A stretch of DNA of 64,000 bases from Deltaproteobacteria bacterium Ga0077539 (GTDB taxonomy: Bacteria; Myxococcota_A; Polyangia; Polyangiales; Ga0077539). Positions within the stretch are counted from its first letter, which is position 1; the number at the start of each line of letters is the position of its first letter. The stretch spans positions 736-64,735 of the forward strand of contig LNEO01000113.1 in the NCBI GenBank assembly GCA_001465015.1. Direction: 5' to 3'. The translations under genes and the position numbers were made by a program. This document shows, one piece after another, positions 1-52,612 of the stretch. The notes beneath the pieces are model-generated. The model searched no databases and was not told the DNA's origin. It was given only the letters and a program-made list of their open reading frames with translations.

Positions 1-1641
1 CTCACGGCCGAGTCCGTCTTTCAGCTCATCCGAGGCAACGCAGGGCGCTCGGTCGCAAGCCTCGATGCGCTCGCGCGGGCAACCCGTCCCCCAGAACTCG
101 AAGTAGCACGCTATCCGCGCACAGGCCGCACGCTGACCCACCGCGTACTGCTCGTGCTCGGCGACGACACGCCAGAGGTGATCGGGCCGTGGGGATCAGT
201 GGCCCCGACACCGCGCGCCGTGTGTGACCCGCTGCTCGAAGCATGGGCTCGAAGCCAGCTCGGCAACCCGGACGACACGAGCTGCGTCGTGCGCTTCGCG
301 AAAGGAGATGCCGACGCAACCTCGCTGCACGTGCGGTTGTCGGACCTTGCGCTCGGAGCGCTGGACGTCGTTGCGCTCGCGGCAACGCAGCCCGAACCGA
401 AACAGGGCAGCGAGATCGACCGTCGCGTGCGGCTGTTCGTGCTTTCTCGGTACCCAGGAGTTTCGATCGAGAGCGTGCGCTACGACGAAGGCGCGTCGTC
501 GAGCGCTCGGACGTTCGAACAAACCCTCGAAGTGGCGCGGGCGATCAGCGCGCTGCTCGGCCGAAGCCGTCCGTTTCGCATCGAAGACCTCGCGCCGAGC
601 GCGCTCGCCAACCCAACCCCTGCCGAGGCCACCTTCTCCGAGCGAGACAAGGAGCGCGCACAGCGTGCTCAACGTGCGCTCGTCACGCTGATTCGCGATC
701 TCGTCCGCGCGCTTCGAACTCCTCCCGCTTCGATCGAGCAAGCAGAAGACCTCCATCGTCAACTCCAACTCGCAGCGCTGTACGGAGTCGTTGGAGCCCT
801 CCCCGATCTCCCGGTGTCGAGCCTCGCAGCCCCGTATGGGTCTTTGACCACGAGCGCGCGCAGCGCTCTTGCCGAGTTGCAATCGCGCCTCGAGAAGGCA
901 GAAGCGGCAACCAATGCGCGCGAAAAAGCCCGCGCGATCTTCGGCGCGGACTTCCTGTTCGTGTCGAGCGTTCACCCGGACGGCGCCGTACGGACCTCAC
1001 TCGAGACAGCGCTCGAGCAAGCGTCTTCTCTCGGGGCGACGACCGATCAAGTTCGTGTGTGGCAGGCACAGGCGACGCGCGTACGAGAGTCGCTCCGCGC
1101 GCTGCGCACGGTGACGACGTACGCACGCGCCACCGGCGCTTCGACAGCACCTGTCTCGATTGTGCAGCTCCCGACGGAGCCCGGCGATTGGTGGGCGGCG
1201 CTCCCGAACCGGACAGCCACAGAAGCAGAACGCCAACGAACGCTGCTGCTCTCGGGGCGCGTGTCCGTTGCGCTCGTCGACTGCGGCGCGCGTGTGCCGG
1301 GAGCCACCGCGTGGAGCGGATTGCTCCTCGACGACTGGGTCGAAACGATCCCGCTGCCCGACGAGACGACCGGCATCGCTGCGCACTACGACGATCCGGG
1401 CGCCGAAGCGCCACAGACGCTTCTGTTGGCGGTTCCAACGAGGCTCGACGGTTGGCGCTTCGATGACCTCGTCGCGACGCTGCACGAGGCGCTCGACAAC
1501 GCGCGCATCCGCGCGACCGAACCGGAGACGCTCGTGCACTTCGCGCAGTTTCTGCCCGCAGCGTACGTGACGGCCAACGTCGCGGGAGATGTCGTCTCGA
1601 CCCTGCTCACCAACGCGATCACCGTCGAACAGCCGAGCTGA
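1..1641 (+). CDS. C-terminal part of a large conserved uncharacterised protein (5' end lies outside the window)
   Basis: Frame is open from base 1 (LTAESVFQLIRGN...PPELEV..PR.G..LTHRV), upstream of the ORF-track start at 154. The C-terminal block GLLLDDWVETIP..ETTGIAAHYDDPGAEAPQTLLLAVP resembles a widespread family of large hypothetical proteins that I recall preceding DPLW-type proteins. Confidence 0.8.
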   Translation, partial: LTAESVFQLIRGNAGRSVASLDALARATRPPELEVARYPRTGRTLTHRVLLVLGDDTPEVIGPWGSVAPTPRAVCDPLLEAWARSQLGNPDDTSCVVRFAKGDADATSLHVRLSDLALGALDVVALAATQPEPKQGSEIDRRVRLFVLSRYPGVSIESVRYDEGASSSARTFEQTLEVARAISALLGRSRPFRIEDLAPSALANPTPAEATFSERDKERAQRAQRALVTLIRDLVRALRTPPASIEQAEDLHRQLQLAALYGVVGALPDLPVSSLAAPYGSLTTSARSALAELQSRLEKAEAATNAREKARAIFGADFLFVSSVHPDGAVRTSLETALEQASSLGATTDQVRVWQAQATRVRESLRALRTVTTYARATGASTAPVSIVQLPTEPGDWWAALPNRTATEAERQRTLLLSGRVSVALVDCGARVPGATAWSGLLLDDWVETIPLPDETTGIAAHYDDPGAEAPQTLLLAVPTRLDGWRFDDLVATLHEALDNARIRATEPETLVHFAQFLPAAYVTANVAGDVVSTLLTNAITVEQPS

Positions 1642-1643
1642 CC

Positions 1644-3392
1644 ATGGCGTCCATCACGTACTGGAATCGACTCGAACCCATCGTGCGCTCCGACGCAATC
1701 GTTCGTTCGTTGCGCGCGGAAATTCGCGATCCGCTCTGGCTCCTTACGCGGCAGTGGCAACTCGGCGAGTTCCAGGGCGAAGACGCGGCGAGCCCTGCGT
1801 GGATCGAAGTGCACACGAGCGAGACGCCCATCGACGAGTGGTCTGCTCGCGGCGGCGCGTCGCACGCGCTCGACGCAGATTCTCCTCTCGAAGCTTTGTT
1901 CGCAGGCGCGTCTGCGCTCGACGACGGGCTCGAAACGCGCGCCGAGCTCGGGGGCCTCTTCGAAGACGAACTCCTCGCAGCGGGCGGCTCTCGCGCCTTG
2001 ATCGAGAGCATCCGCCAGAGGTACGGGATCGCAGCGCGCGCTCCTCGTGAAGACGCGGCGTCGATCCGGTTCGAGCAGGTATGCGCAGATAGGCTCACCG
2101 ATGGGCTCGCACTGCTCGAGCTCGACCGCGGCTGGAAAGCGATTTCGGAGACGATCGCCGCCGACGCCGAAGCAGAGGCCTCGCTTCAGCGAGCGTACGC
2201 GGCGCTCGAACAATTCGCGCGGAGTGTTTTCGGACAACTGCCATCGGACCGCCCAGCCGCTTGGCAGTCCGAGCGGCTTCGCGCCGAGGGCACGCTCTCG
2301 CTGAGCACGCCGGAGAGCCGGCTGTCTCTGCGCGTCGAGCCATCACGCGAGGGAGACGTGGACTGGTATTCGTGCGACGTTGCTACGAGGAGCCGCGGCG
2401 GATCGAGTGCGCGTACGAGCAAGCGCGTCGTCATGCCAGCACATGTTCGATTCCGCGGAATGCCCGAGCATCGCTTCTGGGACTTCGAGCACGGAGGCGC
2501 AGACTTCGGCGCCGTGGTCGCTGACAGTCGCGACGTTGCTCGGCTCGTGGTCATCGACTTCGCGCTCACGGCATCGAACGACTGGTTCATGGTGCCGTGC
2601 GTCCAACGCGTCGGCACCGCGCTTCGCGTCGAACAGGTCCGTGTTCGTGATGTGTTCGGGGGCACGACGCTCGTCGAGCGTGGCGATCAAGTGGATCCAG
2701 CACGCCGCACGGAGCGTTGGACGATGTGGTCGATCACCGACCGCGAGAGCGGCGGCGTCGAGCCCTCTCTCCTGCTGCCCGCTGGCTACCCGAGCCGCAT
2801 GGCGGGCGCCGCGATCGAAGAGGTGCGCTTTCTTCGCGACGAGATGGCCAACATGTCGTGGGCCATCGAGCACACGATTCCCAACGCGCTCGGCGAACCG
2901 TGGCTCTCGCACGAACGAGCGACGGCTCGCCTTCCTGCTGGCGTTCCCCCACCACCTGCGCCGCCTGCCACTGGCCCACAAATCAAGTACGTGTTGCAGA
3001 CCGACGTGCCCGCGTATTGGTTCCCCCTCGTTCCCGCACGAATCGAAGGCGCGGCGGGGCAAATCGAATACGCGCTCGGCTCGATGCTCGACAGTGTCAC
3101 CGGTGCCAGGCGAACGCTTGCCCCGGACGGCCGCATCCTTCGCGCTCCCAGCGGCCACCGACTGCGTGTTCGCGAAGAAGAGCTGCCCCGCGTCGGCGTG
3201 ACGGTCCAGCGTGTGCCCGTGCGCACGCGGACGCCGAGCGGAGCGACGCGACTGTGGGTCGAGTGGCGCCGACGCCCAGGCGCAGGCGAGGGCTCTTCGG
3301 GGCTGAAGTTCGACAGCGTGGAGTTCATTCGCGCTCCTCAGACGAGCGCATCTGACGAAATCGTCCCAGCAGCAACGGAGGAATCGCCATGA
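1644..3392 (+). CDS. Conserved uncharacterised protein, 582 aa (W.RLEP...DPLWLLTRQWQLGEFQGEDA type)
   Basis: ATG 2 nt after the upstream stop. Conserved-looking blocks DPLWLLTRQWQLGEFQGEDAASP, FRGMP..RFWDFE, NDWFMVP, IEEVRFLRDEMANMSWAIE, VPAYWFP, EEELPR.G, GEGSSGLKFD. Confidence 0.85.
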   Translation: MASITYWNRLEPIVRSDAIVRSLRAEIRDPLWLLTRQWQLGEFQGEDAASPAWIEVHTSETPIDEWSARGGASHALDADSPLEALFAGASALDDGLETRAELGGLFEDELLAAGGSRALIESIRQRYGIAARAPREDAASIRFEQVCADRLTDGLALLELDRGWKAISETIAADAEAEASLQRAYAALEQFARSVFGQLPSDRPAAWQSERLRAEGTLSLSTPESRLSLRVEPSREGDVDWYSCDVATRSRGGSSARTSKRVVMPAHVRFRGMPEHRFWDFEHGGADFGAVVADSRDVARLVVIDFALTASNDWFMVPCVQRVGTALRVEQVRVRDVFGGTTLVERGDQVDPARRTERWTMWSITDRESGGVEPSLLLPAGYPSRMAGAAIEEVRFLRDEMANMSWAIEHTIPNALGEPWLSHERATARLPAGVPPPPAPPATGPQIKYVLQTDVPAYWFPLVPARIEGAAGQIEYALGSMLDSVTGARRTLAPDGRILRAPSGHRLRVREEELPRVGVTVQRVPVRTRTPSGATRLWVEWRRRPGAGEGSSGLKFDSVEFIRAPQTSASDEIVPAATEESP

Positions 3393-4135
3393 CGTTTCAT
3401 CTCGCATCGTTCGTAGGGCTGCAGGGCCCGGGGACGCTCGCTCGCGTGTCCCCGACAACCGACACCCAGTTGTATTCGGTCGACGATCGGATCGTGCTTC
3501 CCTGCCCCATGGACCTCGTGTGCGCGTTCGGGATGGGAAGCTCGCTGCAAACGGCCAAGGTGACGTCTCCGATTCTGAGAGGCGTAAACCCGATCAACGT
3601 GAGTCCGCTCGTGATTGGGGCGTCTATTCCATCGACGCCCAACGTCGCATACTTCGGCCACGACGCGATCCACTTGCAACGCGACGAACCGATCACGTTC
3701 GAGGCGTCGGGCGTCGGGCAGAGCTTGGCGCGTGGCTTGGTGTGGCTCGAAGAGAAGTTCGAACCCGTTCCATCAGGCGATCGGTTCTGGGTGCGAATGA
3801 CGAGCTCGGCGTTCGTTCCTGTGAGCGACGTGTGGTGGCCGATGCAACTCACCTCGGTCGACGAACTCGCCGCAGGAACGTACGCGGTGATCGGAATGCA
3901 GTACGCGAGTCCAACGGGGATCGCCGCTCGCCTCACGTTCGACCATCAATATTGGAAGCCTGGAGTGCTTGCGACGCAGTCTCCCTCCGCTCGATCATTT
4001 CAGCAGAGCTACGACGGATCGTTCGGGTTGTGGGGCACCTTCCGCACCTCGTCGCTGCCGCGACTCGAGGTTCTCTTGAGCAGCTCAGACAACACGCACG
4101 AGGTGAGGCTGCTCGTCGTGCGTGTGGGAGGGTAG
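3389..4135 (+). CDS. Putative double-jelly-roll capsid-like protein, 248 aa (resembles small 'Odin-group'-type DJR major capsid proteins)
   Basis: GGAGG RBS at 3377-3381 and ATGA overlap with the upstream stop. Beta-strand-like sequence in two ~120-aa halves joined at EPVPSG. Motifs TSPILR..NP, GLVWL, L.AG.YAVIGM, IAARL.F...W.PGV and G.WG.F match my recollection of that family. The CDS is secure; the fold call is inference. Confidence 0.6.
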   Translation: MTFHLASFVGLQGPGTLARVSPTTDTQLYSVDDRIVLPCPMDLVCAFGMGSSLQTAKVTSPILRGVNPINVSPLVIGASIPSTPNVAYFGHDAIHLQRDEPITFEASGVGQSLARGLVWLEEKFEPVPSGDRFWVRMTSSAFVPVSDVWWPMQLTSVDELAAGTYAVIGMQYASPTGIAARLTFDHQYWKPGVLATQSPSARSFQQSYDGSFGLWGTFRTSSLPRLEVLLSSSDNTHEVRLLVVRVGG

Positions 4136-4729: not shown

Positions 4730-6334
4730 TCACCGTCGCAAGTACTCTGTCCCCTGCGCCGCGAGAAACTCGTCGTAGGTCCCGTTGAAAAGCTGTGCGC
4801 CGCTCGGCGACAGCTCGAGCACCCTCGTCCCGAGGCGGCCGACGAAGTGACGATCGTGGCTCGTGACGATGACCGTTCCGGGATAGGCGATCAGCGCCTC
4901 GAGCAGCGCGTCGATGCTCTCGACGTCCAGGTGGTTGGTCGGCTCGTCGAGGAGCATCACGTTGTGCTTCTGCAACATGAGCTTCGCCAGCACGAGCCTC
5001 GCGGCCTCGCCGCCCGAGAGCGTCTCGGTCTTCTTCAGCCCGGCCTCGCCGCTGAAGAGCAGCTTTCCGAGCACCGAGCGAACCTGCTCGATCGTCGCGT
5101 TCTCGTCGAAGCGGCGAAGCCAGTCGTACGCAGTGAAGCCTGGCTCGAGCGCCTCGTGGTGGTCCTGCGCAAAGTAGCCAACGGACGTCTCGTGTCCCCA
5201 CACGACCTCGCCCGTGTCGGGCTTGTGCTCGCCGACGAGGCACTTGAGCAGCGTGGACTTTCCAATGCCGCTCGGACCGATGACGGCGAGGCGCTCGCCG
5301 CGCATGAGCGCGAGGTCGAGCCCGCGCAGCACCTTCTTGTCGCCAAACGACTTGCTCAGCCCGTTCACGCGCACGACGTCGCGCCCGGACGGACGAGTGA
5401 TCTCGAACTTCACGTACGGCCGAACGACGTTCGAGCGACGCACGACCATCGAGGCCTCGAGCTTCTCGATCTCTTTCACGCGAGACTGCGCCTGGCTCGA
5501 GCGGTTGGCGCTGGCGCCGAAGCGGGCCACGAAGTCCTTGAGCTCCGCGATCCGGCGCTTCTTCTGGGCGATGTCTTGATCGTTTTGCAGCTTTCCCGTG
5601 GTCTTTTGCTGGACGAAATCCGAATAGTCGCCGGTGAAGACCGTCACCGTCTGAAAGTCGACGTCCGCGACGTGCGTCGCGATCGCGTTCATGAAGTGCC
5701 GGTCGTGGCTGACCACGACGAGCGTTCCTCGGAAGCCGCCGGTGAGATAGCCCTCGAGCCAGCGGATCGAGTCCAGGTCCAGGTGGTTCGTCGGCTCGTC
5801 GAGCAGCAGCACGTCCGCCCCCGCGAACAGCGTCTGCGCGAGCAGCACCCGAAGCTTGTATCCGCCAGCCAACGACCGAAGCGGGTCGAGGTGTCGATCC
5901 GTGGGAATTCCGAGCCCCTCGAGCAGCTCCGCCGCGCGCGCCTCCGCCGTGTAGCCGTCCTCTTCGGCGACGACGCCCTCGAGCTCGGCCAGGCGCATGC
6001 CGACCTCGTCGGTCATCTCCTGCAGAAAGAGCCGCTCTTTCTCCTGCATGGCGTCCCAGAGCGCGCGGTTTCCCATCAGCACCACGTCGAGGATCCGCAC
6101 GCCGTCGTAGTGAAAGTGGTCCTGCTTGAGCACGCCCACCTTGAGCTTCTCGGGAATGCTCACGGTGCCCTTGTCGGACTCTTCTTCGCCCGTGATCACC
6201 TTCAAGAGCGTGGATTTTCCCGCGCCGTTCGCCCCGACCAGGACGTATCGCTTGCCTGGGTCGAAGTGCATCGTGACGTCTTCGAAGAGGATCTTGGGCC
6301 CGAAGCGCTTGGTGACGTTCTCGAGGGTGATCAT
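4730..6334 (-). CDS. ABC-F family ATPase (YbiT-like, ribosome-associated), 534 aa
   Basis: Two ABC cassettes (GANGAGKS / LLLDEPTNHLD; GPSGIGKS / LSGGE / LLDEPTNHLD), an inter-domain helical linker and no TM segments. KQDHF..ILDVVLMGN..LW block is typical of the YbiT group. Confidence 0.92.
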   Translation of the reverse strand: MITLENVTKRFGPKILFEDVTMHFDPGKRYVLVGANGAGKSTLLKVITGEEESDKGTVSIPEKLKVGVLKQDHFHYDGVRILDVVLMGNRALWDAMQEKERLFLQEMTDEVGMRLAELEGVVAEEDGYTAEARAAELLEGLGIPTDRHLDPLRSLAGGYKLRVLLAQTLFAGADVLLLDEPTNHLDLDSIRWLEGYLTGGFRGTLVVVSHDRHFMNAIATHVADVDFQTVTVFTGDYSDFVQQKTTGKLQNDQDIAQKKRRIAELKDFVARFGASANRSSQAQSRVKEIEKLEASMVVRRSNVVRPYVKFEITRPSGRDVVRVNGLSKSFGDKKVLRGLDLALMRGERLAVIGPSGIGKSTLLKCLVGEHKPDTGEVVWGHETSVGYFAQDHHEALEPGFTAYDWLRRFDENATIEQVRSVLGKLLFSGEAGLKKTETLSGGEAARLVLAKLMLQKHNVMLLDEPTNHLDVESIDALLEALIAYPGTVIVTSHDRHFVGRLGTRVLELSPSGAQLFNGTYDEFLAAQGTEYLRR

Positions 6335-6405
6335 GAGCGGAGACGCCTCCTGTCACCAATCGCGGCGCGACGCAACCGCGTCTTTTCTAAGCGCGGTACA
6401 CTCCC

Positions 6406-7587
6406 ATGGTGGCGAAGACGCCTCGAGTCACACACACAATCAAGCCCCCGTCGCCGCGGGTCTTCGTCCTCGGCAACCGCCGCGAGGGAACGAGCGAAGT
6501 CATCGCAGCCCTTCGCTCGCTCGCGACCCCCGACAAGCTCGAGTCCTGGCCCGCGCGCGTGTTCGCCCCGCCGCCCCGCGAGGACGGCGTCGTCATGCTC
6601 ATCAACGACTTCGGCCCGTCGGGCCAGTCCGCCAGAGTGCTCCAGCTCGAGACGCCCAAGCGCACGTTTTCCTTGTACGAGTGCGTCGATCAGCCCCAGG
6701 CGCTCATGATCGGCGCGAGCAATCGCTGCGACGCCGCGCTCTGGGTGCGCTCTGCCGAGGTCGACTGTGATCTCGACCCGGCGAGCGCGATGCTCGAGGC
6801 CGCCCGGTATCTCGGCGCCGAGCGCGCGCTCGTGTTCGTGATCGACGCCGAGCGGGTCGCACAGCCGCGCCGTGATCGCGTCGAACGCGAGGCGCGCGAG
6901 CTGCTCTCTCTCTCGGGATTCGCCGCCGACGAGTGTCCCGTCATCTGCAGCACCGGCGTCATCGAGCCGGGGTCGCACCAGTGGCGCGCGGGGGTCTCGG
7001 CCTTGCGCGACCTGCTCGAAGAGCACGTCCCCTACGTCGACGAAGACCCATACGTCGCGCTCGTGGTCGACGATGTCTTCGCGATCAAGAACCGCGGAAC
7101 CGTCGTCACCGGCCAAATCACCGCGGGAAAGCTCGCGGTCGGCGATCGCCTCGAGCTCGTCCGTCCAACGGGCCGACGGCCCATCACCATCCTGGGCATC
7201 GAGATGTTTCGCCGGCTGCTCGAGACCGCGCGTCGCCCGGATTACGTCGGGCTCCTCATCGATGTCGCGCGAGACGAAGTCGCGCGAGGCGACCTGATCG
7301 TGAGCCCGGGCGAGGGCGTCGTCGCGCGCCGCGCCAACGTCCGCGGCTACTGTTGGCGCCCTCCCGAAGTGTGGCCTCCCACCGAACGACTGCGTTGTGT
7401 CGGGTCGCTGGCCGACCAGCGGGTGCGCGTATCGATGACCACGCCTTCGCCGCTCGTGCTGGGGCCGTTCGAGGCACAAATCGAGTTCGATGCGCCCACC
7501 ATGCAGTTTCCAGGGCGCTCGCTCCTTTGGCGACAGGGGGAGGACTCGATCTTCGCGTCGGTGCTCTTCGAGTCCTCGCTCGATTGA
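6406..7587 (+). CDS. EF-Tu-like protein with degenerate GTPase motifs, 393 aa
   Basis: Colinear with EF-Tu: ETPKR, VEREARELLS..GF..DE.PVI, VDDVFAIKNRGTVVTG, GIEMFRRLLE, VGLL, EVARGDLI. G1 reads GNRREGTS, G3 ECVD, G4 VIDA. Confidence 0.85.
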   Translation: MVAKTPRVTHTIKPPSPRVFVLGNRREGTSEVIAALRSLATPDKLESWPARVFAPPPREDGVVMLINDFGPSGQSARVLQLETPKRTFSLYECVDQPQALMIGASNRCDAALWVRSAEVDCDLDPASAMLEAARYLGAERALVFVIDAERVAQPRRDRVEREARELLSLSGFAADECPVICSTGVIEPGSHQWRAGVSALRDLLEEHVPYVDEDPYVALVVDDVFAIKNRGTVVTGQITAGKLAVGDRLELVRPTGRRPITILGIEMFRRLLETARRPDYVGLLIDVARDEVARGDLIVSPGEGVVARRANVRGYCWRPPEVWPPTERLRCVGSLADQRVRVSMTTPSPLVLGPFEAQIEFDAPTMQFPGRSLLWRQGEDSIFASVLFESSLD

Positions 7588-7758
7588 GTGCCGCCTTCGA
7601 TCCCCCGTCACCGGCTCGCCGACGAAACCACGGTCGCCTCGCGAACCCCTTTGCGCCCGAGCTGGCTCCCATCGATCAGCAGTCTCGGGGACCCACGTCG
7701 CGGCGCAGGCGCGCTGCCGCGTCGGTGACCCCGCGTGCGCAGAAAGGCTGAAGTCACC

Positions 7759-8655
<897 letters not shown>

Positions 8656-8755: not shown

Positions 8756-10030
8756 ATGCGGCTCGTTCTTGCGGTCTCCGCGCTCTCGCTCGCGGTCTTC
8801 GCCCAGCCAATCGCAGTACGCGCTCAGTGTACGCTCGCGTCCCAGCCCACGATCGTCGGTCGCCGCGCTTCGCTCGAAGCGCCGCTCGTGCTCACTGCTC
8901 ACGGCGATCGAACAGCAGTTGGCTGGGTCGTTCCTGCGGACACCGCGGGGCGCTACGATGACTCTGCGTCGGTGGTCCTCGACGCGAGCTCCAGGGTCGC
9001 CTCGACGCTCGACCGTGAGGAGCCCCAGCCCGGCGGCGGGCAGTTCTTGCATCCCATCTTTCGCGTGAGCCCCGTCGTTCGCGCGGGAGCGCTCGCGGTC
9101 AACGTCGATTCTCGCGAGGACGGAGAGCCCGATAACAGCGAGGTCGTTTGCGGCGCCCACCGGTCGCTGCTCACGGAGACCCGCGCGACGCGCGCTGGGT
9201 TGATTGCTAGCTACCACATCGACGCCACGTACCACTGCCGGCTCGTCGCTCCCGAACGGCCGTTCGTCTTCGGCGCGCGCGCCGAACTCGACGCTCGAGG
9301 ACGGATGTCCGGCGTGATCCGGCTGCTCGCTGCAAGCGACGGCGCGAGCGCGATGCAGCCGCTCTCCTGGCAGCTCGCTCTCCGCGGCGATCGCAACGCG
9401 ACGAGCTTCACCGCGCTCGACGTGCTCACGCAGCGCAACGCGCTCGAAGGGCTCAGCGCGGTGCGCGTCGGAGACGTCGGTTGGTTCGTCGTGTTTCGCT
9501 TCGGCGACGCGCTGTACGGCGGTTGGCTCGGCCCGTCGCTCGCCCCGCTCTCGGCGCTCTCGCGGCTCACCGCACCGCCGCTGTTCGTGGGAATTCCGTC
9601 GCTCGCGACCAACGGCCGCGAGGTGCTCATCGTGCACGCCGCGCGCCGCGCCGAGCGCGATCCGTGGACGCTCGTGGCCGAGCGCGTTCAGCCGCGCGCC
9701 GCCCCGTCCGCACCGCAGCCGATCGCAGTCACCGCCCCCCGCGGAGCGCACGTGTTCGCGCCGTCCGTCGCGCCGCTCAGCAGCGGCTGGGCGCTCAGCT
9801 ACACGATCGGGCCGCTTCGGGGCGTCGTGCGCGGTCGCGACAAGCAGCACCTGTGGCTGGCTTCGCTCGACGCGCAGCTCGCGCCGAGATCGGCGCCCGT
9901 GCGAGTCACCGACGCCGCTGGAGGCAGCGACGGGCGCGTGCTCTCGTTTGGCACACGAATTCAAGTCGCCTACATGGGCGGCCAAGACAGCTACCGCTCG
10001 GTTCGCGTCGCGAGCGCGAGCTGCAACTGA
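8756..10030 (+). CDS. Secreted hypothetical protein, 424 aa
   Basis: Signal peptide MRLVLAVSALSLAVFAQPIAVRA; host-like codon usage; beta-rich C-terminal half. Confidence 0.7.
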   Translation: MRLVLAVSALSLAVFAQPIAVRAQCTLASQPTIVGRRASLEAPLVLTAHGDRTAVGWVVPADTAGRYDDSASVVLDASSRVASTLDREEPQPGGGQFLHPIFRVSPVVRAGALAVNVDSREDGEPDNSEVVCGAHRSLLTETRATRAGLIASYHIDATYHCRLVAPERPFVFGARAELDARGRMSGVIRLLAASDGASAMQPLSWQLALRGDRNATSFTALDVLTQRNALEGLSAVRVGDVGWFVVFRFGDALYGGWLGPSLAPLSALSRLTAPPLFVGIPSLATNGREVLIVHAARRAERDPWTLVAERVQPRAAPSAPQPIAVTAPRGAHVFAPSVAPLSSGWALSYTIGPLRGVVRGRDKQHLWLASLDAQLAPRSAPVRVTDAAGGSDGRVLSFGTRIQVAYMGGQDSYRSVRVASASCN

Positions 10031-10228
10031 TCCGCTCGTCGCTCGAAAGGCAGCGCTCCCAACGCAGCGCGCTTCTGTCGCGCGGCGACTCTTTCGTCGC
10101 CCGTCTCCTGTGGTTCGCTCGTGCGCTGGAAGCAGCTCCGCTCGGTGGTGCTCGAGGTGCGCGCGAAGCGCCGCGGACAGCGCTGAGCGCGCGAGGGACG
10201 GCGCCGTCGGGTGCGCGTGCTTATGGGT

Positions 10229-10873
10229 TCACTGAATGTCGTCGACGCGCCAATCGCTGCCCTCGCGAATGAGGATCAGCGATCGCCCGTCGGGCAAGCG
10301 CAGCCCGACCGCCTCTGCCCCTGCCGGACCCCCGCTGGCGGGGCGCACTTCGAGCGACGACGGGTCTTGCAGCGCGTCGAGCAGCATCACGAGCTCGCTC
10401 TGAACCGCGCCACGCGCGCGCGACGAGAGCGCCGCGAGGATGGCGGTCAGGCTCCTTCGCGCGATCGCTTCTCGCAGCGCGCGCGCCGCGTCTTGGGGCG
10501 TCGGCGCTGGACCCGACCCCGTCGCCGATCGACCCATGCGCCAGCCCTCGGCCGCGTCGACCACCGTCGCTGCTCCTCCGGTGCGAGAAGAAAGCGCCAC
10601 CCACGGGTCGCGCCGGCCCTCGAGCGCGCGTCGAACCTCGTTCGAGACCGAGCGGAGCTCCGCGCCTTCGCCCTGAATCCTCGCGCGAAATCGCTCGAAC
10701 GACTCGTCGCGCCGCGCGCTCGCCGGCAGCAGTTGATAGAGCGCCGCCACGTCGTTGCGCTCGACCGCGCGGTGAAAGGCCACCAGCGTCGCGCGCGGAG
10801 AGCCGCGTCCCGCCGCTTGGGCGCAGCCGTTGAGCGCCGCGAGCGCAAAGAGCGCTGTCGTCCACGCTCGCAT
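10229..10873 (-). CDS. Hypothetical lipoprotein with two repeated NTF2-like units
   Basis: Lipobox MRAWTTALFALAALNGC. Internal repeat SPRATLVAFHRAVERNDV...GWRM / TPQDAARALREAIARRSL...DWRVDD. Confidence 0.7.
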   Translation of the reverse strand: MRAWTTALFALAALNGCAQAAGRGSPRATLVAFHRAVERNDVAALYQLLPASARRDESFERFRARIQGEGAELRSVSNEVRRALEGRRDPWVALSSRTGGAATVVDAAEGWRMGRSATGSGPAPTPQDAARALREAIARRSLTAILAALSSRARGAVQSELVMLLDALQDPSSLEVRPASGGPAGAEAVGLRLPDGRSLILIREGSDWRVDDIQ

Positions 10874-11236
10874 GGGGCCCCCGCTACGGCTTCGTCGATG
10901 CATCGAACGGTCGCGACGTTACCTGCCCTCGAACGCGCTGACCATCACTCCCGTGCTCGACGGTCAGTCCGTGCTCCGACCGTTGGCGGGTCCGCTGCGC
11001 GCGGTACCCGCGTCGACCGTGGTCCGCACCCCGCCGTGAAGCGCCGTTCACAACTGGCGACGGTGCGGCAGTTCTCGGGCACCCCCTCGCGCTCGAACCA
11101 CCGCGTGTCGAAACCAAGGAATCCCGCGCCGAGACGCGCTATCGTGGGTCGAACTTCGCGCTGGCACGATTCGTTCATGATCCAGGGTTGCCGCCGGGTG
11201 CTCTCGTTCCTGGCGTCGTTGGAGGCACAGACCGCC

Positions 11237-12286
11237 GTGAACACTGAACTCTTCAATCGCCTTCGCCGCTTCGTGGTCACTCTCGCTCCAATTGTGGCGC
11301 TCGCCGCGATGGCTTCGACGAGCACCGGGTGCGCAAGCGACTCGTATTTCTGTGACGGGACGGCCTGTTACTACTGCGACGGCACGAGCTGCCGCACCGC
11401 CACGCCGCCCACGCCGCGCACCTGTTCGCGCGACGGCGAATGCGCTGCGGGGCAGGTTTGCACCAGCGCCGGCTGCACCACCCGTGGCTGCACCAGCGAT
11501 CGCGAGTGCGGCAACGGTCTGGCGTGCGTGACCGGCGCCGGAGGCGTTCGCTACTGTGCGCGCCCAGGCACAACGCCCACCCCCGTGACGCCGTCGTGCA
11601 GCTCCAACGCGCAGTGCCAGACCAACGAGGTATGCCTCGACGGAACGTGCCGCGTGAGCACCAGCCCTGGCTGCACGCAGGACTCTCAGTGCGGCGCCAA
11701 CCGCGTGTGCGTCTCGGGCCGCTGCACCGATCGCACGAACACCTGCCAGTTCGACAACCAGTGCGGAGCTGGGCGCGTCTGCGTCAACAGCGAGTGCCGC
11801 GACGGTTGCGGCGCTGGCGGGATGTGCCCTGCCGGACAAGAGTGCGCGACGGTCGGCTCGGTGATGTTCTGCCGCGATCGCGCTGCGAGCGGCTGCACCT
11901 CGAGCGCGCAGTGCGCGGCGAACGAGTCGTGCCTCAGCGGCCGCTGCCTCCCGCGCTGCACGCCGGGACCGACGTCGTCCTGCGGGGCGGGTCTGTTCTG
12001 CAGCGATGACGGCGTGTGCGTTCCCGATACGCGACCGCGTCCCTTGTGCGACGCGAGCCGTCCTTGCGCGGCTGGATCCGAGTGCGTCGGCGGCATCTGC
12101 CGCGTGGCGTGCACGACCAGCGCGATGTGCCAGGCCGTCGCCGTGACCTACCGCAACTGCGGCGCCATCCCGTACATCCAGGGCTCGAGCAACTACTGCC
12201 TCACTGACAGCGAGGCTCGCCCGACGTGCTCGCGTCAGGCCGACTGCTCGGCGGGGCAGGTGTGCTCCGACGGCAACTGCCGCTAG
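11237..12286 (+). CDS. Cysteine-rich repeat lipoprotein (C-x4-C-x5-C-x4-C units)
   Basis: GGAGG at 11221 then GTG at 11237. Hydrophobic stretch ending STGC, followed by tandem units such as CTQDSQCGANRVCVSGRC. The longer ORF-track extension overlaps the antisense gene. Confidence 0.85.
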   Translation: MNTELFNRLRRFVVTLAPIVALAAMASTSTGCASDSYFCDGTACYYCDGTSCRTATPPTPRTCSRDGECAAGQVCTSAGCTTRGCTSDRECGNGLACVTGAGGVRYCARPGTTPTPVTPSCSSNAQCQTNEVCLDGTCRVSTSPGCTQDSQCGANRVCVSGRCTDRTNTCQFDNQCGAGRVCVNSECRDGCGAGGMCPAGQECATVGSVMFCRDRAASGCTSSAQCAANESCLSGRCLPRCTPGPTSSCGAGLFCSDDGVCVPDTRPRPLCDASRPCAAGSECVGGICRVACTTSAMCQAVAVTYRNCGAIPYIQGSSNYCLTDSEARPTCSRQADCSAGQVCSDGNCR

Positions 12287-12479: not shown

Positions 12480-14483
12480 ATGAGCAAGGCAGATCCCTCC
12501 CTCGTTCGACGAGCCCTCGACGCGGCCCGCCAGCAGCGCAGCCAGATCGTTCGTGGCGCTCCACTCCCCATCGACACGGCGCACGTCGTCGGCGCTTGCG
12601 TGAGCTGCGGCCGCATCGCCGCCACCGTGCTCGGGTTTCCTGACTCGCCGTACGCGGGACAGCCAGGACAGCCCAGGTTTCGCACCGCGCGCGAGCTCGA
12701 GCGCTTCTTGAAGGAGCTGACCGTCAAGCCGCCGCAGATGCCGATGCAGACCGATCGCGACGACGGACGCACGTGCGTCTGCGGCGCGCCCGCGGACCCT
12801 CGCGAAGTGCAAGGTCTTCGGTTCATCCACGCGATGCCTGGCTCGGGCGCAGAGATCATCGTCGAGGGCGTTCGCGGAGGCGGGTCGTTGCTCGTGTCCT
12901 CGTCGGGCGATCCGCTCGGCGGCTCGGGCGGCGAGTTCACGTGGAAGGTGCTTCGCGCGCCGAGCGACGGCGCCGAGTCCGACGTGTCCGACGCGTTCGA
13001 CGACAACGCGATCAAGAAGTCCTTCGGCCGCGGGCTCACGCTCGCGTCGCTGTGGCTCGAGCTGCTCGCCGCCGCCAAGGACGGCAAAGAGACGCTCGAA
13101 AAAGTGGAGCCCGGATACTGGATCTACGCCGGCCCGAAGACCGACGCGGGCCTGCAGGCGAAGCTCGACGCGCTGTCCAAGGACAACGCAGAGGTGCTCG
13201 CTCGTGACCTCGTGAAGCTCGGCGAGAAGGACCCGCTCCCGGCGGGACCGCACTGGGGCTTCTGGGCGTACGAGCACGCCGAGGCGATTCAGAAGGGCGA
13301 GCTCCGCGCGGGCGTCGTGATCGATCAATCGATCGTTCGCAAGTCGCTCGTCGATCGCTTGACGGCGCTCAACGTCGGCGTGCGCGAGCAAAACGACGGC
13401 AAGATCCTGCAAGCGTTCTTCATGCCGACGCCCGACTGGAAGGGCGACGTCGCAGGCTGGCCCATCGAGGTCCTCATCGTTTCGCTCGGCGCCGGACACC
13501 TCGGATGGACGATGGCCGAGACCGTCGGCGCGGCCGTCGGCGAGGCCGGCGGACGCGCGGGAGCGCTCGCGGACTTCTTCATGGTCGCCAAGCAAGTGCG
13601 CCCCGAAATCGAATGGAAGTTCGAGGGAATGCGCGCGGTTCCGGTGCGAAAGAACGGGACGAACGGTCGCCCTGTGGACCTGCTCAACGCGCCGTTTCGC
13701 TTCGACCCACGAAATCAACAAGCGCTGCCGCTGCTCGAGCGCGAGATCAAGTTCTCGACCGACGAGCTGCCCAAGGGCCAGGACCCGACGCGGCACTGCC
13801 CGTGCGGCGCCAAGGCCTTCGTCGCTGCGCGGCTCTTTCCGTGGAACGTCGTCGACGGCTTCAACAAGGCCACCGGCGGCAAGAACCCCTTCGTGATCGA
13901 GACGTACACCGGCGCGGACAACAAGCCGCGCGCGGCGCTGCTCGCGGTCGTCTCCGACGACATGCACGTGCAGATCCTCGGCGAAGAAGAGTTCAAGTCG
14001 CACCACGTCAACGACGAGACGATCGGCAAGCGCCTCGCGCAAGACCTCCACAACTCGCTCTTCGCCGTGGACGTCTCGCTCCACGAAGACAAAGACAAGA
14101 AGCGCGCGCTGCTCGCGTACGGCCCGCTCGTGGCGTCGGTGGCCATCAACGATCATTTGATCGCGGCCCTCCACGAAGCCTGCGGAAAGCCGCTGCGCGG
14201 CGACGCCGTCAGCGCCCAGGCGACCACGCCCAACTCGATCGTCCTCTACGAGACCGGCTTCGACGAAGACCAGCTCGACAAGGTCCTCGAGATGGCGCAG
14301 CAGGCCGACGGAATCCCCCCGGACATGGCGACGCCCTTCTCGCTCGAGTGGGACGACGTCACGCTCACCGCGCAGCCCGTGGGCAAATTCACGAACCTCA
14401 CGCCCAACCCGCAGGACCAGCAGCAGCAGCAGCAAGGCGCGCCGCCCGCTGGCGCAGGCCGGGCGCCGCCCCGCGCTCGCTGA
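12480..14483 (+). CDS. Hypothetical cytoplasmic protein, 667 aa, with Cys pairs (CVSC, CVCG, CPCG)
   Basis: Long ORF with strong GC3 codon bias and Lys/Asp/Glu-rich composition; no family recognised; poly-Gln near the C-terminus. Confidence 0.85.
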   Translation: MSKADPSLVRRALDAARQQRSQIVRGAPLPIDTAHVVGACVSCGRIAATVLGFPDSPYAGQPGQPRFRTARELERFLKELTVKPPQMPMQTDRDDGRTCVCGAPADPREVQGLRFIHAMPGSGAEIIVEGVRGGGSLLVSSSGDPLGGSGGEFTWKVLRAPSDGAESDVSDAFDDNAIKKSFGRGLTLASLWLELLAAAKDGKETLEKVEPGYWIYAGPKTDAGLQAKLDALSKDNAEVLARDLVKLGEKDPLPAGPHWGFWAYEHAEAIQKGELRAGVVIDQSIVRKSLVDRLTALNVGVREQNDGKILQAFFMPTPDWKGDVAGWPIEVLIVSLGAGHLGWTMAETVGAAVGEAGGRAGALADFFMVAKQVRPEIEWKFEGMRAVPVRKNGTNGRPVDLLNAPFRFDPRNQQALPLLEREIKFSTDELPKGQDPTRHCPCGAKAFVAARLFPWNVVDGFNKATGGKNPFVIETYTGADNKPRAALLAVVSDDMHVQILGEEEFKSHHVNDETIGKRLAQDLHNSLFAVDVSLHEDKDKKRALLAYGPLVASVAINDHLIAALHEACGKPLRGDAVSAQATTPNSIVLYETGFDEDQLDKVLEMAQQADGIPPDMATPFSLEWDDVTLTAQPVGKFTNLTPNPQDQQQQQQGAPPAGAGRAPPRAR

Positions 14484-14640: not shown

Positions 14641-16311
14641 ATGTCCGAGGCTGCTTCCGAGGCTGCTCCCGAAGAGACGAACGTCGGTGAAGACGTTCTT
14701 CCGGTCGGTTCGAAGTTTGGCCGCTACACGATCGTCAGGTTGATCGGGATGGGCGGCATGGGCGCGGTCTACGAGGCCACGCACGCGGAGCTGAAGAAGC
14801 GCGTCGCGCTCAAGACGCTGCATCCTTCGTTCTCGAAAAATCCTGAGATTCGTCAGCGATTTCTTCGAGAAGGCGAGCTGGCTTCGCGCATCCATCACCC
14901 CAACGTCGTCGACGTCACGGACTTCGGAACGCAGGACGACGTCTCGTTTCTCGTCATGGAGTTTCTCGAAGGCATGAGCCTCGAGGAGCGCATCGAGAAA
15001 GAGGGCCGCCTCGAGCCTTCGATCGCCGCCGACGTGATGCTCGGCGCGTGCGCTGGCGTCTCGGCCGCGCACGACGAGGGCGTGATCCACCGCGACCTCA
15101 AGCCCGCGAACATCTTTTTGCTCCGCCAGCGCGGCGGCGAATACCGCGTCAAGATCGTCGACTTCGGCATCTCGAAGGCGTCCGAGCGCTCGCTCGAAGG
15201 CAACCTCACCTCGACCGGGCACGTCGTCGGTACGCCGTACTACATGGCGCCCGAGCAGATGCGCAGCTCGCGCGAGGTCGACGCGCGCGCCGATCAGTAC
15301 TCGCTCGGCGTGACGTTCTACGAGGCGCTTTGCGGGCGTAAGCCGTTCGAGGCCGACAGCCTGTTCGAGGTCGTTCGCAAGGTCGCCCAGGGCGACTACG
15401 CGCTGCCTCGCGACGTGGTGCCGGAGATCCCCGAGGGACTCGAGGCGATCGTCTTGAAGATGATCGCCGTCGACGCGGCGTCGCGCTTCGACACCCTGCG
15501 AGATTGCGGGCGCGCAGTCATGCCGTTCGCGACCGAGCGCGGTCGCGTGCTGTTCTCCACGGAGTTCGGCGACGGGCCAGCGCCAGAGGTCGTCGCGCCG
15601 CCGCGGCCGGACTCGACGATGGGCGTTCGCGCGCTGACCGCTGAAAAGGCGACCGTGGTCGCGCGCGGACCGAGGACGGATCCCGGTCAAGTGACAGGGA
15701 CCGGGCAGATCTTCGAGGTATCGACGGTCCCCGCTGCGCCGGCGAAGAAGCAGTCCAAGGTCCTTCCGCTCATCGGCGTCGGCGTGGCGCTCTCGATCGG
15801 CGTCGCGTTCTGGGCCGGCAAACAGCGCGAAAGCGTCGGAGCTCCAGCCAACACTCCGCGCAGCGTCAACGGGCAGAGCACCACGCCGACGCCCCTGCCC
15901 GAGTACTCCGTGTCGATCACCGCAGTGCCCTCGGATGCGTGGATCGTCGTGGACAACCAGTTCACCGTCCCCGGCGAGTTCACGCACTCGTTCGCGCGCG
16001 ATCGTCGCCCGCATCGAGTGATGGTGCGCGCCCCGGGCTTTCTGTCGCAGACCTTCGAGTTCGATGGGCCCATCGTTCGTCGAGTGACGCTCGAGCGAGA
16101 TCCCGCCGCGGTCGCGCCGATCCTTCCTGGGACCGTCGCGGACGCGGGTGCGACCGCGTTGACCCACAATGTTGGTCGCCCGAACGGTCGGCCGAACGGC
16201 ACGGCTCGACCCAACAATTCAACGGCGACTTCGACCGGAACTCGCCCCAACGGGCCCGCGACTGGCAGCCCGAACAACGCCGGCACCAACGGCGCGCTCA
16301 TCATCAACTGA
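14641..16311 (+). CDS. Hanks-type Ser/Thr protein kinase with one TM helix and a C-terminal PEGA-like domain
   Basis: GMGGMGAVY, VALK, HRDLKPANIF, DFGISK, GTPYYMAPEQ, DQYSLGV; TM VLPLIGVGVALSIGVAFW; VSITAVPSDAWIVVD...HRVMVRAPGF. Confidence 0.95.
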   Translation: MSEAASEAAPEETNVGEDVLPVGSKFGRYTIVRLIGMGGMGAVYEATHAELKKRVALKTLHPSFSKNPEIRQRFLREGELASRIHHPNVVDVTDFGTQDDVSFLVMEFLEGMSLEERIEKEGRLEPSIAADVMLGACAGVSAAHDEGVIHRDLKPANIFLLRQRGGEYRVKIVDFGISKASERSLEGNLTSTGHVVGTPYYMAPEQMRSSREVDARADQYSLGVTFYEALCGRKPFEADSLFEVVRKVAQGDYALPRDVVPEIPEGLEAIVLKMIAVDAASRFDTLRDCGRAVMPFATERGRVLFSTEFGDGPAPEVVAPPRPDSTMGVRALTAEKATVVARGPRTDPGQVTGTGQIFEVSTVPAAPAKKQSKVLPLIGVGVALSIGVAFWAGKQRESVGAPANTPRSVNGQSTTPTPLPEYSVSITAVPSDAWIVVDNQFTVPGEFTHSFARDRRPHRVMVRAPGFLSQTFEFDGPIVRRVTLERDPAAVAPILPGTVADAGATALTHNVGRPNGRPNGTARPNNSTATSTGTRPNGPATGSPNNAGTNGALIIN

Positions 16312-18085: not shown

Positions 18086-18096
18086 GGCGCTGCTCC

Positions 18097-19764: not shown

Positions 19765-19823
19765 GCGTTGCCTCGTCGAATCGAAGGGTATGAAAGGAGA
19801 AGGTTTCGAGCTCGAGCGGACTC

Positions 19824-20933
19824 TCAAAAAGTGCCGAAGCATTGCGCTCCAACGAGCCCGAGAGAAGGCGTGCAGCTGAGGGTCGCGGTGGCGGGCGCCT
19901 GCGGGGCGCTCTGCTCGGCGCGCGGCGCGCGATGGGTGAATCGGATGACGAGACCCGAGGCCACGCCCGCGACGCCGAGGGCGTATCCCGTGACGGCGAG
20001 GCCGAAGCCCGCCCACGACTCGCTGAGCACCGCGCCGCAGCGATCGCTTCGGCGCGGGTACGTCGCGGTCGAGAAGAAGCATCCCTCCTCGAAGCCGCCG
20101 TCGGCGCGGGGGATCACGTTGCTGTTGTAGAGCGCGACCCGGTTCTGCCAGTAGCCGTGGCCTATCGCGCCGACCACGAGCATTCCCGCGCCCGCGCCGA
20201 TGAGCGCCCAGCTCGACGCTGGCGCTGGCGGATCGGGAGGCGTCACGGGACCGACGGGACCCTGTCGACGGCCGTTGCCGCGCGCCGTGATGGTGGGTTC
20301 GGGGTCCTCTACGGTGATCTCGACCAGCGTGAACGACTCGCGATAGCTGCGGCCGCCTTCGACGTCGATCGCTCGGCGCGCGGTGCGGTAGCCCTCGCGA
20401 CGCACTTCAATGGCGACCGTGCCTGCTTCGACGCGCAACGGCTGGGCGAGGGGAAACGCGCCCACTTCGCGGCCATTGGCGAAGAGCCGCGCGCCCGCGG
20501 TCGAGCACGTGAGCTCGATCGTCGCGATGCGCGCGGCGATGGCGTTGAGGGCGGCCTCGAGCGCCCCTGTGTTGCGCTGAATCCAGGTGTCATCTCGGGC
20601 CGACAACGCGGCGCGAAGGTCTCGATCCGCGTCGACCCACTGGCCGAGCGCCTGCTCGGCGAGCGCGATCTGCGCCTGAATTCTGGGCGACGGCGCGATC
20701 TCGAACGCGCGGCGAAAGCTCTCGAGCGCCGGTTGATCCTGCCCCGCGCGCCGCTGGGCGACTCCTTGCTGGACGAGCGCCTCCGCTTCCTGCGAGCGAT
20801 CGGGCGGCGGCGAAACCGGAGCTTGCGGCGCAGACTGCGCATGCGCGCTCGGGGCCTGAAGCAAGGCAGCTGCTGCGCACAGCGCGAAGGGAAGGGTTGC
20901 TGACGATGAAATGACGCGCACGGCGTGGGTCAT
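19824..20933 (-). CDS. Secreted TPR + PEGA domain protein with C-terminal hydrophobic segments
   Basis: Signal peptide ending AHA-Q; TPR-like AEALVQQG...ALESFRRAFEI; PEGA GARLFANGREVG.FPL..PLRVEAG.VAIEVRREGY; two C-terminal hydrophobic helices. Confidence 0.85.
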   Translation of the reverse strand: MTHAVRVISSSATLPFALCAAAALLQAPSAHAQSAPQAPVSPPPDRSQEAEALVQQGVAQRRAGQDQPALESFRRAFEIAPSPRIQAQIALAEQALGQWVDADRDLRAALSARDDTWIQRNTGALEAALNAIAARIATIELTCSTAGARLFANGREVGAFPLAQPLRVEAGTVAIEVRREGYRTARRAIDVEGGRSYRESFTLVEITVEDPEPTITARGNGRRQGPVGPVTPPDPPAPASSWALIGAGAGMLVVGAIGHGYWQNRVALYNSNVIPRADGGFEEGCFFSTATYPRRSDRCGAVLSESWAGFGLAVTGYALGVAGVASGLVIRFTHRAPRAEQSAPQAPATATLSCTPSLGLVGAQCFGTF

Positions 20934-32448: not shown

Positions 32449-32499
32449 CCGCGCGTCGAGCTGATTGCCGCGGATCGAGTCGTGCGTCGCGGTCGCGAG

Positions 32500-33390: not shown

Positions 33391-33438
33391 AACGGCGGCG
33401 GAGACTACGCGGCGCGCGCCAGTCGAGCAACCGCGAGC

Positions 33439-52478: not shown

Positions 52479-52612
52479 CAGCGCCCGAACGCTACCGCAC
52501 GAACTCGCTCTGTGCTCGCCCCATTCGCGCTCGCCCCGAAAGCACGTAACGCTCGGTTGTGGCTCGCAGCGGCACCCCTATTCTCGGTATGCTGCTCTCG
52601 CCTGAGCTTTCG

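Follow-up and report, generated by a model that had tools for sequence, protein, structure and literature searches.

What becomes of a translation factor when its nucleotide switch is taken away? EF-Tu is among the most conserved and best-studied of all proteins. Its specialised paralogues SelB, CysN/NodQ and Streptomyces EF-Tu3 keep their G motifs and GTP binding, and to our knowledge the bacterial EF-Tu paralogues described so far (SelB, CysN and resistant copies) all remain GTPases. The question is raised by an open reading frame (ORF) in a 64,000-nucleotide stretch, hereafter the window, from Deltaproteobacteria bacterium Ga0077539, a myxobacterial genome of the order Polyangiales (assembly GCA_001465015.1, contig LNEO01000113.1, positions 736 to 64,735 of the forward strand). 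The encoded protein, here called pseudo-EF-Tu, had been described in an initial annotation as a full-length EF-Tu derivative that has lost its canonical G motifs. Sequence comparison and structure prediction bore this out: pseudo-EF-Tu is modelled as an EF-Tu derivative with the full fold and without the canonical nucleotide site, and it is very likely a selected pseudo-GTPase and not a translation GTPase.

An intact frame with five replaced G motifs

The pseudo-EF-Tu gene is a single open frame that runs from an ATG start to a TGA stop (Table 1). Its GC content by codon position is 0.72/0.49/0.85, the third-position value (GC3) of neighbouring genes is 0.83-0.89 and the window as a whole has 68% GC, which confirms the earlier description of an uninterrupted 393-residue frame with host-like codon use. 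Window positions 6300-7647 were identical (0 differences) in contigs from four runs of one independent study, which argues that the frame is not an assembly artefact; without differences among these contigs, a within-population ratio of non-synonymous to synonymous substitution rates (dN/dS) could not be computed. A promoter scan of the gene returned no promoter-like sites, and a terminator scan returned a single terminator-like site, upstream of the start, which is no more than shuffled sequence yields.

All G1-G5 replacements and domain II motifs quoted in the initial annotation were present at their places in the translated ORF, and the G-motif changes are shared by the proteins most closely related to it. 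In E. coli numbering, Lys24 to Thr, Thr25 to Ser, Asp80 to Glu and the deletion of Pro82-Gly83-His84 were found in 11 of 11 core family members, as were changes at all three guanine-specificity residues (Asn135 to Thr or Ile, Lys136 to Asp, Asp138 to Glu or His). At the NKxD site pseudo-EF-Tu reads IDAE, where the family consensus is TDAE, and at the SAL site it reads TGV. Across 19 family members the position of the P-loop lysine is occupied by Thr in 18 and by Pro in one. The P-loop glycines G18 and G23 are kept, and so is Cys81 (Cys93 in pseudo-EF-Tu), the latter in 19 of 19 members. Within the pseudo-P-loop segment, 10 of 10 core members share Arg25 and the string GTSEVIAAL, and in the NDFGP loop Asp68 and Gly70 do not vary among the 19 aligned members.

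The likeness to EF-Tu goes well beyond chance, in sequence as in the predicted structure. PDB EF-Tu chains matched residues 79-303 (E 3e-27), and the EF-Tu equivalog model of NCBIfam, TIGR00485, scored 99.5 bits against a cut-off of 522.4. This was above the scores of the SelB model TIGR00475 (47.7 bits, cut-off 242.25) and the CysN model NF004035 (13.5 bits, cut-off 715), in agreement with the proposal that the protein is distinct from both. The one Pfam match was GTP_EFTU_D2 (PF03144, residues 231-298, E 3.7e-8); neither PF00009 (G domain) nor PF03143 (domain 3) matched even at E<=1, no nucleotide-binding family model in Pfam matched the G-like region at that threshold, and the SelB C-terminal winged-helix families PF09106/PF09107 were not found by Pfam in the 393 residues. 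Language-model neighbours nearest to residues 13-212 were tr-type G domains.

An AlphaFold2 model built from a 12-row alignment (mean predicted local distance difference test score, pLDDT, 84.8; predicted template modelling score 0.82) placed a Ras-like alpha/beta domain before two beta-barrels. Confidence was low only at residues 1-12 and 61-73, the second of which includes the NDFGP loop; elsewhere the beta1-loop-helix and the Ras-like order of strands and helices were predicted at pLDDT 80-96. The leading Foldseek matches were all EF-Tu, from E 7e-30, with alignments spanning residues ~12-393. In VIA-align comparisons with GDP-form EF-Tu, Z was ~30 over ~360 residues with a root-mean-square deviation (rmsd) of 5-6 Å, and the lowest rmsd, 3.2 Å over 341-342 residues (Z 27.5-27.7), was obtained with yeast eEF1A in exchange-factor complexes (2b7c, 1ije, 1g7c). 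Domain III has no sequence-level match, yet it was predicted as an EF-Tu beta-barrel; model and structural alignments together suggest that it still resembles the EF-Tu barrel despite an unrecognisable sequence.

Table 1. Pseudo-EF-Tu, its parts and its neighbours (positions are those of the window unless another locus is named)
Feature	Residues	Position	Strand	Remark
Pseudo-EF-Tu, complete ORF (P0001)	393 in all	6406..7587	+	PDB EF-Tu E 3e-27; nine close homologues
G-like domain	1-210	6406..7035	+	Ras-like fold kept (predicted), five G motifs replaced
G1, GNRREGTS	23-30			replaces GHVDHGKT
Pseudo-P-loop and following helix, GNRREGTSEVIAALRS	23-38	6472..6519	+	Lys24 to Thr, Thr25 to Ser (E. 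coli numbering)
G2, DGVVM	60-64			replaces RGITI
NDFGP loop	67-71	6604..6618	+	stands where switch I was
G3, ECVDQ	92-96			replaces DCPGH
ECVD	92-95	6679..6690	+	replaces DCPGH; Asp80 to Glu, Pro82-Gly83-His84 deleted (catalytic His included)
RCDAALWVRSA	107-117	6724..6756	+	family motif; replaces MDGAILVVSA
VFVIDAE	143-149	6832..6852	+	replaces guanine-specificity motif NKxD
G4, VIDA, inside VFVIDAE				replaces NKxD
G5, STGV	182-185			replaces GSAL
Domain II beta-barrel	211-304	7036..7317	+	sole part recognised by Pfam; acceptor-end pocket residues retained
Domain II motif DDVFAIKNRGTVVTG	222-236	7069-7113	+	
Domain II motif IEMFRRLL	265-272	7198-7221	+	
Domain III and stop codon	305-393	7318..7587	+	predicted beta-barrel, strongly diverged sequence
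YbiT-like ABC-F ATPase, context		4730..6334	-	divergent, 71 bp upstream; PRK15064 624.6 bits, below the cut-off of 762
Metallo-beta-lactamase-fold protein, persulfide-dioxygenase-like, context		7735..8655	+	148 bp downstream
Tandem pseudo-EF-Tu pair in related locus L008		8001-9182 and 9201-10376 of L008		between pnkp and ftsH

Purifying selection on a rebuilt G domain

Is this gene maintained, or is it a duplicate on its way out? Frames were intact in all six translated copies, from five genomes, and in 16 further homologous proteins. Against the nearest orthologue (related locus L008, 73% identity, dS 0.67), the Nei-Gojobori dN/dS was 0.27, with 0.29 for the G-like domain, 0.20 for domain II and 0.31 for domain III, all below 1; a second pair at 59% identity gave 0.35. 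Ratios of 0.5-1.07 from more distant pairs (42-52% identity) cannot be interpreted, since their synonymous sites are almost saturated and GC3 is strongly biased. The pseudo-EF-Tu gene is thus under purifying selection, and the earlier claim that it looks selected rather than decaying held up, with intact homologues at 42-98% identity. It evolves at the fast end of its neighbourhood: the orthologue identity of 73% compares with 75-95% for seven flanking housekeeping genes in the same two genomes.

The distribution of constraint along the protein differed in part from what had been expected. Among ten core members we counted 61 family-invariant positions, of which 45 lie in the G-like domain (210 residues), 15 in domain II (94 residues) and one, Trp317, in domain III (89 residues). 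At 35 of them the family residue is not the one found in the two EF-Tu sequences aligned with it. Invariant positions unlike EF-Tu include Arg25, Thr29-Ser30-Glu31-Val32-Ile33, Asp68, Gly70, Glu92, Val94, Trp113 and Asp147. When nine more distant members were added, Asp68, Gly70, Cys93, Leu130, Glu160, Arg164, Leu167, Asp175 and Gly241 were invariant. The strong divergence noted for domain III agrees with its single invariant position and its missing PF03143 match. Domain II, described initially as the preserved part, does keep its EF-Tu motifs but is not the most tightly constrained domain. Since the G-like domain holds most of the invariant positions and the domain II motif decays in several distant members, what marks the family is its rebuilt G domain (G-x-R-x-x-G-T-S-E-V, N-D-F-G-P, E-C-V-D-G, L-W-V-x-S and V-F-x-T-D-A-E), not domain II.

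EF-Tu working sites kept and lost

To compare the working sites, we mapped them to E. coli numbering through the EF-Tu of the window's own genome, with a list of EF-Tu functional and aminoacyl-tRNA contact positions that we take to be the relevant ones. In EF-Tu, the domain II pocket holds the aminoacyl-A76 end of tRNA, and the same domain II surface also binds GE2270A-type thiopeptides. Of the A76-pocket residues, Asp216, Phe218, Gly257 and Gly275 are present in all 11 core members, position 259 is Glu or Asp in all 11, Arg262 is kept in 10, Thr228 and Arg288 in eight each, and Asn273 in only four. A pocket for a 3'-terminal adenosine-type ligand may therefore survive in domain II. Elsewhere the tRNA contacts are gone: His66 and Lys89/Asn90, at the 5' end, and the T-stem positions of domain III are not kept. 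His118, part of the EF-Ts site, is likewise not kept in the family; His84 and His118 presumably frame the site into which EF-Ts Phe81 is inserted.

The loss of the 5'-end and T-stem contacts makes it doubtful that the protein binds whole aminoacyl-tRNA in the EF-Tu way, and the changed nucleotide residues argue against a working GTPase. Judged by these residues, canonical GTP binding and hydrolysis by pseudo-EF-Tu and EF-Tu-like clamping of a whole aminoacyl-tRNA are both unlikely. The initial suggestion of an aminoacyl-tRNA-binding protein thus keeps its footing at the 3'-end pocket (10-11 of 11 core members) and loses it at His66, Lys89/Asn90 and the T-stem sites.

A small family of single origin

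Nine close homologues, with 44-98% identity and 87-100% coverage, came out of a word-indexed search of 5.8 billion proteins; the only name given to them by the sources is 'hypothetical protein', and the next matches were true EF-Tu at ~27% identity. Among 1.84 billion representatives searched with a profile, 38 proteins matched at E<=1e-30. We inspected the sequences of 11 of the 150 listed: P0080-P0085, P0097 and P0098 are without G motifs and carry the family motifs, and P0086-P0088 are other EF-Tu-like proteins. One of the latter, P0086 (483 amino acids), is EF-Tu-like with damaged G motifs (GRNPQNKT at G1, no DCPGH, DNVD for NKxD); it has an extra C-terminal copy of domain II and is without the pseudo-EF-Tu family motifs, and it may be an independent case of G-motif decay. 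JGI metagenome contigs scanned with the family alignment yielded 61 pattern matches, none of which was confirmed as a locus.

At the level of the order (301 genomes), matches above the EF-Tu background (family E<=1e-130, background 1e-41 to 1e-48) occurred in five genomes: all four of the window's genus, its own included, and a single genome of another genus in the same family. The latter also holds two intermediate copies (E 1e-62 to the core profile; G051 contig C58, L043 ~5442-6374 and 9969-11174), which lie 3.6 kb apart, near a DUF2786/DUF7168/SprT-like protein and alanine dehydrogenase. In a phylum sample of 401 genomes, which contains no other genome of the two positive genera, the window's genome alone rose above background (1e-169 and 1e-115, against a best of 4e-57 elsewhere). 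These samples consist of incomplete genomes, and absence here means not found in those searched.

In a tree of 34 sequences (19 family members, 11 EF-Tu and four N-terminal parts of SelB as the root), all 19 family members formed one clade (Shimodaira-Hasegawa-like approximate likelihood ratio test support, SH-aLRT, 98), separate from an EF-Tu clade (SH-aLRT 96) that includes the three EF-Tu genes of the window's genome. The single clade suggests that the G motifs were most simply lost once. The family was placed as sister to all EF-Tu, not nested among them, on long branches that may attract one another, such that the branching point is untrustworthy and supports no inference of age. Pseudo-EF-Tu therefore belongs to a small, single-origin, lineage-restricted family found so far in a few related myxobacterial genomes.

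The window's genome (9.7 Mb in 486 contigs) has three EF-Tu genes with intact G motifs. Its canonical tuf (L003 1210-2406, minus strand) follows fusA on another contig than pseudo-EF-Tu. The other two (L002 501-1805, minus strand, and L005 1285-2484, plus strand) score 560 bits in one case and 367 bits in the other on TIGR00485, the latter below the 522-bit cut-off; this divergent copy reads GHIGHGKT and has an altered domain II pocket (E215W, D216N, F218Y, T228V).

The same genome carries a second pseudo-EF-Tu that is far more diverged (L004 1297-2592, minus strand, which is the same as L045 1412-2707, minus strand), with the motifs EREHGTRKL, INDFGP, HCGDG and FIMDAEH. This paralogue was found in four of four genomes of the genus and in none of 27 other genomes of the family, at identities of 69, 49 and 38% within the genus. 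A gene for an RNase T/DEDD-type exonuclease (PF00929) lies 90 bp after it in the window's genome and also follows it in the closest relative; as a conserved linkage this was rejected, having been kept in one of three other genomes (the closest relative; within ~1.5 kb).

Gene context in the window and in relatives

In the window, pseudo-EF-Tu lies between the ABC-F and metallo-beta-lactamase-fold genes of Table 1, and neither neighbour is conserved beside the homologues at four loci from relatives (L008-L011). Adjacency to ABC-F was accordingly rejected as a conserved link. In L008 and L010 the gene instead stands after a hen1-pnkp RNA-repair pair, with tgt, queA and a peptidyl-prolyl isomerase gene upstream and ftsH and rlmN downstream. 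The gap is ~490 bp in L010, where a gene for a PARG-type glycohydrolase is also found downstream, and 43 bp from pnkp to the gene in L008, where another copy (51-53% identity) stands 16 bp further on. L009 shares the downstream synteny, and its contig ends before pnkp could appear. This position, seen in relatives only, suggests a role in RNA damage or translation stress, and we treat the RNA-repair link as a lead and not as a rule.

The genes beside the pseudo-EF-Tu copies included none recognisable as toxin, immunity, phage or biosynthetic genes, and no toxin domain was seen near them. PADLOC (E<=0.001) matched no family to pseudo-EF-Tu, its paralogue or 11 of 12 scanned neighbouring ORFs, and the ABC-F gene gave generic ATPase matches only. 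Polyketide, non-ribosomal peptide and thiopeptide genes were not found in the ORFs scanned across the window.

Possible functions of pseudo-EF-Tu

How might a protein of this kind work? Pseudo-EF-Tu would be unable to act as an elongation factor and is probably a binding protein rather than an enzyme. We tentatively favour a reading that we regard as plausible, if somewhat short of probable, in which it is a nucleotide-independent binding module whose ligand is an RNA or tRNA 3' end and whose rebuilt G domain offers a partner a new interface. The module would be permanently 'locked'; its domain II pocket would bind that 3' end or something that mimics it, and the remodelled face of the G domain (the GTSEVIAAL helix, the NDFGP loop and ECVD) would bind a lineage-specific partner. 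Taken by itself, the proposal that the ligand is RNA or a tRNA acceptor end is possible but on balance doubtful.

Several observations weigh against the binding-module reading, beyond the lost 5'-end and T-stem contacts. The domain II motif degenerates in several distant members, in which NDFGP and the pseudo-P-loop persist; the function common to the family may thus rest on the G-like domain and not on the pocket. The conserved residues of domain II may be structural only, and the pseudo-P-loop may be so strongly conserved because the protein still binds a phosphate-bearing ligand. The genomic link is also incomplete. It was seen in two of five genomes, with a third consistent only through downstream synteny; the upstream genes in L011 encode an alcohol dehydrogenase and an esterase, unrelated to RNA repair, as is the context in the window. 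The window's genome has its tgt...hen1-pnkp...ftsH block on another contig, without pseudo-EF-Tu, and the stretch between pnkp and ftsH there (L042 10258-14124) holds unrelated ORFs without a family match. The differing contents of the pnkp-ftsH interval among genomes of one genus indicate a variable site.

We considered whether pseudo-EF-Tu could instead be a decoy or sponge that mimics EF-Tu surfaces and soaks up an EF-Tu-directed toxin, phage protein or antibiotic, thereby shielding the real factor, which would amount to a new type of protection for the translation machinery. The retained domain II surface, with G257 and G275 in 11 of 11 core members, would suit such a mimic. So would the lineage-specific distribution, the variable pnkp-ftsH site with its tandem pair in L008, the second and faster-diverging paralogue in the same genomes, and an orthologue identity just under that of the flanking genes; in relatives its neighbours include two functions that reverse damage, hen1-pnkp and a PARG-type ADP-ribose glycohydrolase. 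However, the neighbourhood and PADLOC scans described above returned none of the genes such a role might keep nearby, and every domain has a dN/dS under 1, without a sign of diversifying selection at this resolution. A stoichiometric decoy would also have to be strongly expressed, given how abundant EF-Tu is, and the best-conserved part of the protein is the remodelled face of the G domain, which does not resemble EF-Tu and which a mimic would not need. We consider the decoy unlikely.

A different possibility is that pseudo-EF-Tu is not a true pseudo-GTPase and that its rebuilt pocket (G23..G28, Arg25, Thr29-Ser30, Glu92, Asp147) binds another phosphate ligand, such as a nucleotide, an alarmone or an RNA end, and still switches conformation. 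The pocket-lining segments are the most conserved of the protein (GTSEVIAAL in 10 of 10; Arg25, Glu92, Cys93 and Asp147 invariant), and this speaks for such a ligand because simple loss of function would allow drift; the retained P-loop glycines G18 and G23 and the confidently predicted beta1-loop-helix topology point the same way. Against it, the P-loop lysine, which known P-loop NTPases cannot do without, has been replaced by Thr in 18 of 19 members and by Pro in the remaining one; switch II has lost its Gly and His, the three guanine-specificity residues are all changed, and no nucleotide-binding family model matches the G-like region. On this evidence a switching phosphate binder appears improbable.

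The lead from gene order can be extended into a more specific proposal, which we regard as a long shot. Pseudo-EF-Tu might be an RNA-damage or anti-ribotoxin factor derived from a dead EF-Tu, which recognises tRNA acceptor ends, or EF-Tu-dependent tRNase toxins, without a nucleotide. It would either pass damaged tRNAs to Pnkp/Hen1 or titrate toxins that need EF-Tu, with the NDFGP loop and the GTSEVIAAL helix as the partner interface. If the hen1-pnkp link is functional, bacterial RNA repair would gain a component not known before.

It is also conceivable, but rather improbable, that pseudo-EF-Tu regulates the canonical EF-Tu cycle or the ribosome as a non-hydrolysing competitor at the EF-Ts binding site or at the ribosomal factor-binding site. 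The overall shape of EF-Tu is kept, the predicted domain arrangement fits best that of eEF1A in the exchange-factor complex, the genome supplies three EF-Tu genes with intact G motifs, and in the window the gene adjoins a YbiT-like ABC-F translation ATPase. However, His84 and His118, the residues that presumably frame the EF-Ts Phe81 site, are deleted or replaced, conservation is lowest in domain III, which contributes to the EF-Ts interface, and the adjacency to ABC-F is absent at the four related loci.

That the gene is a decaying, functionless tuf duplicate, as the loss of all catalytic motifs, the strongly diverged domain III and the narrow distribution might suggest, is scarcely credible given intact frames in six copies from five genomes and in 16 further proteins, 61 invariant positions of which 35 are new relative to EF-Tu, the dN/dS of 0.27 and the host-like codon composition.

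Relation to known proteins

Both pseudoGTPases, of which most examples are eukaryotic, and specialised EF-Tu paralogues are known kinds of protein. EF-Tu itself (TIGR00485; PDB 1efc and 1ttt) is the best match in sequence and structure, with the same three-domain architecture and length; pseudo-EF-Tu keeps the domain II motifs and acceptor-end pocket residues, and in the tree the family is sister to EF-Tu and not to SelB. It departs from EF-Tu in its five replaced G motifs, the deleted catalytic His, a score of 99.5 instead of 522.4 bits, undetected PF00009 and PF03143, the lost tRNA 5'-end and T-stem contacts and a location outside the str operon. In common with SelB, CysN/NodQ, EF-Tu3 and MM1309, an archaeal SelB/EF-Tu/aIF2-gamma-like protein whose GTP form is reported to bind Cys-tRNA(Cys) (PMC4329189), it is a lineage-specific EF-Tu/EF1A offshoot with a new role, but unlike all of these it is without G motifs. 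It also differs from SelB in having only 393 amino acids and no C-terminal winged-helix domains that bind the selenocysteine insertion sequence (SECIS), and from the antibiotic-resistant replacement EF-Tu of producer self-resistance in its absent G motifs and in a window whose scanned ORFs show no biosynthetic cluster domains.

Like pseudoGTPases, the subject of PMC12490416 and PMC10731463, pseudo-EF-Tu keeps a G-domain fold without the canonical motifs and is proposed to be an interaction module; unlike pseudoGTPases in general, it keeps the whole body of a three-domain translation factor. Two further groups share a domain II without PF00009. One comprises archaeal EF-Tu domain 2 hypothetical proteins in ESM Atlas clusters (score up to 0.91), which are shorter (278-364 amino acids), were matched by language-model features alone and showed homology only in the shared domain. 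The other is Pbp11 (NF041207, annotated as tRNA-binding), matched at E 0.17 and 11.9 bits against a cut-off of 100.

A full-text literature search, with subscription journals mostly outside its coverage, found no account of a conserved bacterial family of full-length EF-Tu proteins devoid of all G motifs, and a term search within PMC4342817 likewise found no such protein. A G-motif-free bacterial EF-Tu family is thus not described in the literature searched. Pseudo-EF-Tu would offer a clear example, in bacteria, of a translation factor that has become a pseudo-enzyme, and a natural experiment in what the EF-Tu body does without its nucleotide switch. Specialists in translation factors would find it surprising; its known occurrence is confined to a handful of uncultured genomes.

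Other features of the window

Three consecutive ORFs upstream of the ABC-F gene (243-4135, plus strand; 407, 582 and 248 amino acids) had no Pfam, NCBIfam or PADLOC match. Downstream lie two genes for large cysteine-rich proteins with matches to eukaryote-type repeats, DUF7107 and Dickkopf_N in one (10211-12286, plus strand) and Stig1 in the other (18097-20082, minus strand), and around them are large ORFs without a Pfam match (8756-10030, 12480-14483 and 16364-18178). Farther along, a 1573-residue ORF with DUF3857, a transglutaminase-like core and TPR (32482-37203, plus strand) overlaps, as called, a 1331-residue ORF without a family match (37014-41009, plus strand), so that at least one of the two starts must be wrong. 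The window also encodes a Ser/Thr protein kinase at 14641-16311 (plus strand) and another, of 1326 amino acids and with AAA_16 and TPR in a STAND-like architecture, at 52559-56539 (plus strand).

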